Position numbers and translations under genes: made by a program. DNA of 64,000 bases, from NCBI GenBank assembly GCA_051294905.1, contig CM119371.1, positions 36,272,001-36,336,000 on the forward strand, given 5' to 3'. Every line of letters begins with the position of its first letter. The stretch's first letter is position 1. Positions 33,253 through 35,559 of this stretch are shown here, piece after piece. The DNA is from Botryllus schlosseri. Lineage: Eukaryota. The notes below the pieces were generated by a model. That model saw only the letters and a list, made by a program, of their open reading frames with translations. It was not told where the DNA came from and searched no databases.

Positions 33253-33643
33253 CGAATATATCTCTCCGTCTACGTTTCTTGTTTGACGTAGTACCTCCCC
33301 GCGCGCCCTTTTTAAGCTTTTTCGTGGCTTTTCGTTTACGACCCCCGATCGCGGTATCGAGAAGCTGTAGACCTCCTTCTTTACTCCGTGATATAGCGGA
33401 TTGTTTGAACGAGCGCCCGGCCACCAAATCTTTAGCGATATTCGACCCGGTACGGAGGATTTGTTTCCCCAGTATCTTGGATCCTTTTGACACTAGAGGT
33501 AAGACCGCCCGGCCTATGGTTCGAAAAATCGATGCTAGCCCGCTACCGCTTTGCCTGGACCCCCGGTAAAACCCGTAATTCCCAGCCCCGACCTGATAGT
33601 GGTGCAAAACGGCTTCTCGGTCACAACAATAGTGCACTTTCAT
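33245..33643 (-). CDS. Conserved small basic Polinton virion protein (PW-like; core or membrane-active candidate), 132 aa
   Basis: YQVGAG..FYRG..QSGSGLASIFRTIGRAVLPLV..G..LGKQILRTG motif typical of the small gene next to Polinton MCP; very basic C-terminus ending in RRRRDIF. Confidence 0.75.
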   Translation of the reverse strand: MKVHYCCDREAVLHHYQVGAGNYGFYRGSRQSGSGLASIFRTIGRAVLPLVSKGSKILGKQILRTGSNIAKDLVAGRSFKQSAISRSKEGGLQLLDTAIGGRKRKATKKLKKGARGGTTSNKKRRRRDIFDG

Positions 33644-34005
33644 AACGACACCCTGAGATGTATCGTGAGGTCCAAACCCGAGATGTCCAATAATTCACCA
33701 TACTCGTCCCTTATATAGATGTAGAAATACTCGAAACGGTCGAGTCTGACTTTGGCGTAGTATCGATTTTGAAATATATGGTTTTGTCGCTCCCCCTCGT
33801 GTAGCGCAACGACTCTTAGCAACGGGACCAAAGCGTCACCCACCGGCGTCGACTCGATGTCATTACAGTAGATAAAGGCGTAGAGGCTTTCGCACGACTC
33901 ACGAACAAAGTTTATCTCCATAAGAGCAATCTCAAGACCTTTACAATCCATTCCGTGGGGTAGGGTAAATACGGGTCCGTCACCGGTCAGTGTTTGGAAC
34001 GTCAT
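33640..34005 (-). CDS. Minor capsid (penton/PX) paralog 3, insertion-less, 121 aa
   Basis: EIALMEINF joined almost directly to AFIYCNDIESTPVGDALVPLLRVV..QNHIF..YY..IYIRDEYGE..LTIHLR; these blocks are shared with the two upstream paralogs. Confidence 0.8.
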   Translation of the reverse strand: MTFQTLTGDGPVFTLPHGMDCKGLEIALMEINFVRESCESLYAFIYCNDIESTPVGDALVPLLRVVALHEGERQNHIFQNRYYAKVRLDRFEYFYIYIRDEYGELLDISGLDLTIHLRVSL

Positions 34006-34759
34006 CTCGTAAGTGAAGGGTCAATTCAATGTCACCGCATTTAAGTTCTTTTCCAAGAGAATCCCGTATGCTGATGCGTACGCTACGGAAGCTCTTGGCA
34101 TCGGCGGGTAGGTAAAACGGTTTCCTGAATGATACGTGCTGTCGTTTCATTTCCGGTACCGTAACGGGGATGATTCGTAGAAGTCTGGACATATAATCAC
34201 CTACCGGGAGATGGCGCACGCAATCGCAATATATAAATAAATACTGAGATTTTACTATCGACGGGATATACCACGCATTGAATTCAATGTGCTCAACCTC
34301 GCGTAATGAAATCGGAACCTCTCCCTCCTCCGCGATGATGTCGTCAATATCGTATCTCTGATGCTCGTGTATGACACGGTAGTTGCCGAAATTCGCGTAA
34401 GGCCCGAGCGTAGATGTGAGCAGAGAAGAATTCGGTGGGAATCCCTCGCATACCAATCGATTCTGGCTGGGCGTAAAGTACCAGTGATACCCGTTCACGA
34501 GTTCCTCGCTAATTCTTTGCATTAGTTGATCGACATTATCGAAATCGCCGGTGGGTAACTCATAGACTTCGGTGACATCTTTGACAATCGTATTCCAGAA
34601 GCTCATGGCCCGGGTGGGTTCTGTGATCTCAATTCTTTCCTGAAAATCATGGTCGAAGCTAATTTCTCGGAGAGCGATCTGTTTACCCTCCGATTCGATT
34701 TCAACCGGTAATTCAACCGTGAAATCGGGTCCGCTTCCGAATATCGTGATATAGCTCAT
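33980..34759 (-). CDS. Minor capsid (penton/PX) paralog 2, 259 aa
   Basis: FTVELP..QIALREISF; LPTGDF; LFIYCDCVRHLPVGDYMSRLLRIIPV..QHVSFRKPFYLP..ISIRDSLG..LTLHLR. Confidence 0.85.
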   Translation of the reverse strand: MSYITIFGSGPDFTVELPVEIESEGKQIALREISFDHDFQERIEITEPTRAMSFWNTIVKDVTEVYELPTGDFDNVDQLMQRISEELVNGYHWYFTPSQNRLVCEGFPPNSSLLTSTLGPYANFGNYRVIHEHQRYDIDDIIAEEGEVPISLREVEHIEFNAWYIPSIVKSQYLFIYCDCVRHLPVGDYMSRLLRIIPVTVPEMKRQHVSFRKPFYLPADAKSFRSVRISIRDSLGKELKCGDIELTLHLRDDVPNTDR

Positions 34760-35559
34760 AACGCTTTGACGGCTCCTCGACGGATCAGTAAAGTCACTGT
34801 AACGGGGGCTGTTTTAAACGCGACAGGGTTATTGTTCTTGTCACGAAGATATACTCGTATATTTCGAATATTACTCTTGGCCAGGGGAAAAAAGTAAGGT
34901 TTATCATATACACAGTGCTGTATTTTTCCTTCTTGCGCGGTCACCGGAACGCTTCGAAGGAGAGGTACTAGCTCGCTCCCGAATACACGAGGTCTGATCA
35001 GATCGGTGTATATATAAATGGTGTCTACATCTTTCACGATGGTTTTCGGTCTGATTAAGAACTCTATTGGTTTTTGTTTCTTCAAAACATGATGTTCCAC
35101 TGTAAAATAACGCGGAAACGTGTCCTCGATGCTGGCGAGACGCGGACCCGCACCACTGATTTTTTTGACCCGTATCAAGGGCTCGTCGGCCGGTGGAAAC
35201 CGACTCTTGAGATACTCAAAGTTCAAGCCGAACACGCCACCGGTGTATCGCTTGATTGTAATTTCTTTCTCGTATCGCAAGCGAAACTGTTCCAACATAT
35301 CTGGGACACTGCGATACTTGCCGGGCGGGATGTAATACACGTGACGATGGCCCCTGTCAGAAAATTCGATACCCGCACGCTTGTGGTCTATCGTGAACGT
35401 GGGCTGGAAGCTTACTGGGAACATGACCTCAGCAAGCCCTGCCTCATATCTTTCTGTATCATATTTTAACTCGGAGAATAGCTGGGTTACAAAATCGTTC
35501 GCGGTGTTTGCCTTAAAAACGCTCATTGAAGAATTACTCGGTAAAACCAGAAGAGTCAT
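34756..35559 (-). CDS. Minor capsid (penton/PX) paralog 1, 267 aa
   Basis: Canonical PX N-terminus LVLPSNSSM..NTANDFVTQL..YEAGLAEVMFP; IPPGKY; IYIYTDLI..FG..LVPLLRSVPV..KPYFFPL..IRVYLRD..VTLLIRR. Confidence 0.9.
   Translation of the reverse strand: MTLLVLPSNSSMSVFKANTANDFVTQLFSELKYDTERYEAGLAEVMFPVSFQPTFTIDHKRAGIEFSDRGHRHVYYIPPGKYRSVPDMLEQFRLRYEKEITIKRYTGGVFGLNFEYLKSRFPPADEPLIRVKKISGAGPRLASIEDTFPRYFTVEHHVLKKQKPIEFLIRPKTIVKDVDTIYIYTDLIRPRVFGSELVPLLRSVPVTAQEGKIQHCVYDKPYFFPLAKSNIRNIRVYLRDKNNNPVAFKTAPVTVTLLIRRGAVKAL

Follow-up and report, generated by a model that had tools for sequence, protein, structure and literature searches.

The window, a 64,000-nt stretch of Botryllus schlosseri DNA (assembly GCA_051294905.1, contig CM119371.1, positions 36,272,001 to 36,336,000), contains an intact Polinton/Maverick element of the adintovirus type (Table 1). 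The terminal inverted repeats of the element are identical at 299 of 300 nt, the ends read AGTAGT...ACTACT, and a target-site duplication of 6 bp (GCTGTC) flanks it on both sides, within the 5-8 bp that mark Polinton/Maverick elements (Polintoviricetes). On the minus strand the gene order is PolB, accessory genes, ATPase, two small ORFs, integrase, P1, P2, P3, PW, major capsid protein and protease. The integrase match to PF00665 scored 31.5 bits, just below the curated cut-off of 32.6, and was counted as an rve domain. The PolB, ATPase, protease and capsid ORFs are intact, stand in canonical order and have homologues beside PX in metagenome loci; their Pfam matches were weak or lacking. The 148-aa ORF we take to be an adenain-type cysteine protease, and the 1292-aa ORF presumably encodes a protein-primed PolB, both on the basis of familiar motifs and position. 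Outside the element, at 55148-55766, 62238-62737 and 56404-57257, there are long near-palindromes with arms of 305 nt and 234 nt as well as tandem repeats of 42 nt; these are probably host MITE or satellite DNA.

Table 1. Features of the Polinton element, in coordinates of the window, with the basis of each assignment.
Feature	Position	Strand	Length	Characteristics and basis
Polinton/Maverick (adintovirus-type), intact	30815..47232		~16.4 kb	inverted ends and target duplication
Adenain-type cysteine protease (presumed)	31535..31981	-	148 aa	position; weak papain-fold Pfam match, E 0.19
Major capsid protein (PY)	31978..33252	-	424 aa	named from position and size; no Pfam match
PW-like basic core protein	33245..33643	-	132 aa	named from position, cf. 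vertebrate Mavericks; no Pfam match
P3, predicted headless penton	33640..34005	-	121 aa	bare 8-strand jelly-roll, without insert, without PSN loop
P2, predicted second penton	33980..34759	-	259 aa	jelly-roll plus ~135-aa insert, without PSN loop
P1, canonical PX/penton by sequence	34756..35559	-	267 aa	insert ~131 aa, LPSN loop kept; profile and shared motifs
rve integrase with C-terminal chromo-like domain	35753..36754	-	333 aa	PF00665 E 2.2e-7; PF00385 E 0.021
Packaging ATPase	37605..38246	-	213 aa	P-loop GPSFSGKST; weak P-loop Pfam matches
Protein-primed DNA polymerase B (presumed)	40179..44057	-	1292 aa	position; no PolB match in Pfam

Vertebrate Mavericks carry a single minor capsid gene between integrase and PW (PMC8097293). 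The same slot, from the integrase to PW and the major capsid gene, holds three penton genes in the window element. The three ORFs are exactly as the initial annotation had described them, with N and C blocks common to all, and adjacent genes overlap, P1 and P2 by 4 nt (ATGA), P2 and P3 by 26 nt, and P3 and PW by 4 nt. PW is the one gene between P3 and the major capsid gene, which agrees with the neighbourhood of PX described in PMC4028283; a PW homologue also adjoins the penton in most metagenome loci. The published Polinton PX or adintovirus Penton (PMC4028283; gene order in PMC8097293) is a single jelly-roll with an insert in the DE loop that occupies this slot, and P1 is typical of it. The window element differs in having three paralogs instead of one, of which P2 and P3 lack the PSN loop and P3 also lacks the insert. 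The triplet is not an artefact of the assembly, since P3, P2 and most of P1 are also covered by a single 2467-nt contig of an independent run, which differs by 49 substitutions and has no gaps.

In pairwise local alignments all three pairs of P1, P2 and P3 scored above 1000 of 1000 shuffles (z 20.2, 9.4 and 23.1). Between the two blocks lie inserts of 131 aa in P1 and 135 aa in P2, and about seven residues in P3, in line with the original description of very divergent inserts of about 130 aa and a nearly bare third paralog. The likeness between the P1 and P2 inserts was not significant overall (z 1.4; 97 of 1000 shuffles scored as high), and a short YxxPxGxY/F stem motif is all that they have in common. 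The LPSN...N loop between the first two strands is kept by P1 alone; in each of the four families of this genome that carry the triplet, P2 and P3 lack it. In the 18 PX proteins that were aligned, a set drawn partly from a profile search with P1 that found 20 PX-like proteins, the P-S-N residues are invariant (18/18); P1 also carries the invariant YxYxD, G and LLR motifs of PX and is, judged by its sequence, the canonical PX/penton. In the core, neither P2 nor P3 exceeds 35% identity to any P1 (range 21-35%), and the longest DNA stretches shared among the three genes measure 8-10 nt, apart from the 26-nt overlap. Searches of Pfam with P1, P2 and P3 gave no match for any of them, and neither a P3 profile against PDB sequences nor a word-based protein search with P3 returned anything.

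Structure prediction was informative for both of the divergent paralogs. The P3 model is an eight-strand jelly-roll (pLDDT 90.5, pTM 0.82), and in a VIA comparison with 48,161 solved chains it matched Sputnik 3j26_N best (Z 12.3, rmsd 2.4, 121 of 121 residues aligned), followed by PBCV-1 6ncl_a6 (Z 12.0) and the mavirus penton (11.9), and then by capsid chains of EhV-201, PBCV-1, an aviadenovirus and an iridovirus, with the lower rows starting from Z 6.8. Sputnik 3j26_N is a penton (PMC9952930). With Foldseek, the best PDB match of P3 was a PBCV-1 chain of 167 residues (E 4e-4). Among predicted viral structures its top match, at E 1.8e-7, was a protein from Drosophila-associated adintovirus 2 that is 161 aa long. 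The AlphaFold2 model of P2 (pLDDT 85.5) has the same base with a domain inserted at residues 37-170; its best Foldseek match was the mavirus penton (E 7.9e-9), with Sputnik and adenovirus pentons also matched, and VIA gave Z 13.0 with PBCV-1 6ncl_a6 and 12.6 with Sputnik 3j26_N. A search of the ESM Atlas with the P2 insert returned no named binding fold, only unnamed clusters and DUF5901 at 26%. As modelled, P2 and P3 are penton-type single jelly-rolls that are closest to solved pentons, so the initial annotation's reading of both withstood this comparison. All three ORFs are penton-family genes, P2 and P3 by predicted fold and P1 by its motifs.

Copies of P3 were then sought in the same genome, where 150 of 523 candidates were scored. 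Twenty matches were 98-100% identical (family A), four full-length matches 60-61% (family B) and about 100 matches 36-42% (families C and D). The triplet is present in these four divergent families, whose major capsid proteins are 100, 78, 47 and 48% identical to that of the window. Of 20 loci retrieved for the more distant matches, 13 preserved the order with all three ORFs full-length and adjacent; the remaining seven were damaged copies or fragments. Penton order was constant in every intact locus seen, and each of the four families retains P2 and P3 as overlapping genes of the virion operon. Twenty family-A copies were chosen by P3, with P1 covered from about nt 55; none of them has a gap or stop in P3, while 19 are free of both in P1 and 19 in P2. 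Choosing family-A loci by the capsid gene instead gave 19, every one of which adjoined a stop-free P3 match, including four with a partial or broken capsid match. Between sister families P3 is 55-68% identical, and synonymous sites in the triplet families are at or near saturation.

Purifying selection acts on all three genes, P3 being less constrained in family C. In family A, piN/piS was 0.05 (P3), 0.07 (P1) and 0.13 (P2) for the C blocks, 0.11-0.30 for the N blocks, and 0.24 and 0.25 for the inserts. For family C we used two sets of loci that share members (23 and 30), leaving out copies with gaps or stops; the P1 blocks gave 0.07-0.09 and the P2 blocks 0.10-0.22, against 0.25-0.47 in the inserts and 0.26-0.43 in P3. 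These results make it barely credible that P2 and P3 are neutral, redundant duplicates and P3 a decayed fragment, a reading that is largely refuted by the intact P3 of all 20 close copies, by its conservation across families in which synonymous change is near saturation, and by the confidence of its model. The fear that P3 might be decayed in sibling copies did not materialize. What speaks for such leftovers is a damaged family-C copy (L034:4386-4763, G000:C16), in which an in-frame deletion of 294 nt removed the whole P2 insert and left a headless ORF of 125 aa; headless forms can therefore arise by accident. This was the only such copy noticed among the family-C copies inspected, and the deletion could illustrate how P3 originated. 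Another damaged family-C copy (L151, G000:C5) contains two partial P3-like ORFs about 500 nt apart.

The selection data also bear on the earlier suggestion that the pentons form a tropism switch, in which alternative pentons in different particles would change the receptor. The two very divergent inserts would suit such a system, and in families A and C the inserts do evolve faster than the jelly-roll. However, the insert ratios (0.24-0.47 in families A and C) point to purifying and not to diversifying selection, every ratio is below 1, and no hypervariable tips were found. Gene order is constant, the cassette has no repeats or shared DNA that could support inversion or conversion, and no joints inside it were seen in eight runs, although four of these, the raw RNA runs, barely cover it. 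Tropism switching is thus very improbable, and the related idea of interchangeable vertices finds no support in orthologs and an order that are fixed across families.

The distribution of penton number was examined in the 80 best of 530 metagenome loci that matched canonical PX, which is a biased sample. Of these 80 loci, 54 were bracketed by integrase and PW or capsid; 52 of the 54 had one penton, two had two closely related headed pentons, and none had three. Two scans of viral contigs and a tblastn search of phage records gave no relatives. Doublets are present in the B. schlosseri genome itself, in families E and F (L141-L148, G000), where the first penton has the loop and the second lacks it, and where the capsid protein is 32-34% identical to that of the window. 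They are also in print: a preprint by Buck et al. (PMC11071296) reports a few adintoviruses with duplicate Pentons and some Pentons without a DE insert, and its supplement 2 lists Penton1 and Penton2 for at least seven genomes, with no 'Penton3' label among the entries listed. Two of its genomes from a Botryllus dataset, Adinto10012 and Adinto11189, match families E and F by eye; in Adeno7806 a short Penton1 comes before a longer Penton2, making a short-plus-long pair. The Adeno7806 gene 'Cah', which follows these two, resembles a third penton paralog by eye. In its available text, PMC11071296 does not analyze the function, selection or conservation of duplicate pentons.

A triple-penton Polinton was not found in the accessible parts of the literature surveyed, which included PMC4028283, PMC8097293, PMC10328495, PMC11131425 and PMC9952930 as well as 10.1101/697771, 10.1101/2023.08.22.554363, 10.1101/2022.07.28.501842 and 10.64898/2026.10.13.758929. 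The triplet adds a stable three-gene arrangement to the doublets and insert-less pentons already published, and its novelty is lower than initially assumed: single pentons do prevail in the metagenome sample and no triplet was found in print, but duplicates, insert-less pentons and a short-plus-long pair had already been reported (PMC11071296).

To place the paralogs among their relatives, 170 of the 3349 proteins matched in a profile search of 1.84 billion representatives were examined. Four look like whole headless pentons (P0021, P0032, P0123 and P0148) and P0155 is ambiguous; P0123 and P0148 are stand-alone insert-less pentons. Among 24 short database matches, 19 read as C-terminal fragments from ordinary PX genes and were left out of the headless count. 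Seven proteins (P0025, P0115, P0031, P0033, P0051, P0113 and P0141) are single chains that contain both a headless and a headed penton domain, approximately 5-13 residues apart, and fall into separate 50%-identity clusters; P0141 is a sea-anemone protein from NCBI (KAK3743572.1). The headless and headed types can therefore sit side by side. Five other proteins join two headed domains in one chain (P0023, P0040, P0161, P0169 and P0022). For the loop-less headed protein P0024 (260 aa) and the headless P0032 (114 aa) the longest contig measured 16,433 nt in both cases; if they lie on one contig, they may represent a further lineage with a triplet-like design.

In a tree of the core sequences, P1 grouped with the first genes of families E and F (87.7/94), and P2, P3, the second genes of E and F and four database proteins formed another group (90.7/92). 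The P3 genes of families A/B and C/D were not one clade in the core tree or in a 73-row C-block tree, which was run in quick mode and is poorly resolved, and P3 may have arisen twice. An old duplication would have produced P1 and a loop-less P2 type, i.e., the doublet of families E and F, and a later duplication with loss of the insert would have given P3. A series from one to two to three genes fits the trees, with the final step being ambiguous.

How three pentons would be arranged was considered by comparison with solved vertices. In PR772 the penton base consists of three P5 and two P31, and P31 has been proposed to relieve a steric clash (PMC6750898). The P5:P31 pair of PR772/PRD1 combines a headed paralog with a bare jelly-roll paralog in the manner of a spacer and is most likely the closest working likeness; the triplet, too, encodes headed and headless paralogs together. 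PR772/PRD1 differs in that it is a tectivirus of bacteria with two components, that the head of P5 is a C-terminal trimeric spike and not a DE-loop insert, and that its shared vertex was seen by cryo-EM (PMC6750898), whereas for the triplet a shared vertex is inferred. In PBCV-1, P1 occupies 11 vertices and P1v1, which has a large DE insertion, the unique vertex (PMC9617893). As in the triplet, the main difference between these penton paralogs is how large the DE insertion is; PBCV-1 is, in contrast, a giant virus with two pentons, not three, which form separate homo-pentamers on common and unique vertices.

We tentatively prefer, at a probability of roughly 45%, that P1, P2 and P3 are used together in one particle, most likely in a mixed five-subunit corner with P3 as the spacer; this was the part of the original proposal that held up as the best single reading. 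In such a corner the jelly-roll bases would complete the five-membered ring and touch the major capsid protein, P1 would supply the conserved loop, P1 and P2 would project two different heads, and P3 would fill ring positions without a head, thereby leaving room for an asymmetric crown. A receptor-binding role of the inserts is assumed. Since the PSN loop is kept by P1 alone, P2 and P3 are unlikely to serve as stand-alone substitutes. Several findings count against a mixed ring: P3 is relaxed in family C (0.26-0.43, versus 0.07-0.09 for the P1 blocks) and is not monophyletic in either tree, and the penton cassette drew almost no reads in any of four raw RNA runs (3-13% of each run read), in which the virion genes were nearly silent. 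A two-domain fusion chain alone cannot tile a ring of five.

The separate homo-pentamers of PBCV-1 (PMC9617893) fit the same data and provide direct precedent for vertex specialization, in which each paralog would form its own homo-pentamer at different corners, for example with P3 at the common corners and a headed penton reserved for one unique corner used in entry or packaging. Every result on retention and selection is explained equally well in this way, the best Foldseek PDB match of P3 is a PBCV-1 chain, and stand-alone insert-less pentons exist (PMC11071296; P0123 and P0148). We nevertheless regard such specialization as rather unlikely, and the mixed ring is favored over it for two indirect reasons: the loop retained by single pentons has been lost from P2 and P3, and fusion of headless with headed domains in one chain has occurred repeatedly elsewhere, in seven clusters. 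That Pfam recognized no unique-vertex scaffold gene set in the 16-kb genome also speaks, weakly, against it. It is improbable that P1 is the sole true penton, with P2 and P3 exapted as cement, decoration, crown or non-virion factors outside the five-fold ring. Here the full canonical motif set of P1, the low core identity of P2 and P3 to any P1, and the relaxed P3 of family C would all be accounted for, but P3 keeps the whole penton base fold (all 121 residues on Sputnik 3j26_N at 2.4 Å) together with the C-block motifs, and P2 and P3 are still overlapped inside the virion operon.

To our knowledge, no particle is known from the triplet Polinton lineage. More generally, particles of animal Polintons have not been observed according to the available literature. 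That families which spread recently keep three vertex genes under purifying selection argues that selection still acts on the architecture of the particle. Structures for the change from symmetric to asymmetric vertices come from PR772 and PBCV-1, and none was found for animal Polintons in the accessible literature; single, doublet, triplet and fused states offer a natural series for this change, and P1, P2 and P3 are small enough for direct structural tests. As a broader and still more tentative possibility, an animal Polinton lineage would build an obligate three-component asymmetric vertex, relatives would reach a comparable one by headless-plus-headed fusion, and mixed vertices would have arisen more than once among small DNA viruses of eukaryotes.

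No RNA dataset was listed as containing the penton cassette. It is covered by contigs from two runs that may be RNA, which cannot show transcription. No conserved splice-acceptor pattern was seen by eye before the starts of P2 and P3. The strongest transcript of the element in the four raw RNA runs came from an accessory gene between ATPase and PolB (38228-40150, minus strand), and was spliced and polyadenylated, with GT-AG introns at joints 38970/39028, 39433/39489, 39566/39621 and 39942/40002 and poly-A near 38228. In two of the four runs, a leader without a template in the element was joined at 39237. This leader resembles a tunicate spliced leader, which may point to host trans-splicing of a viral transcript.
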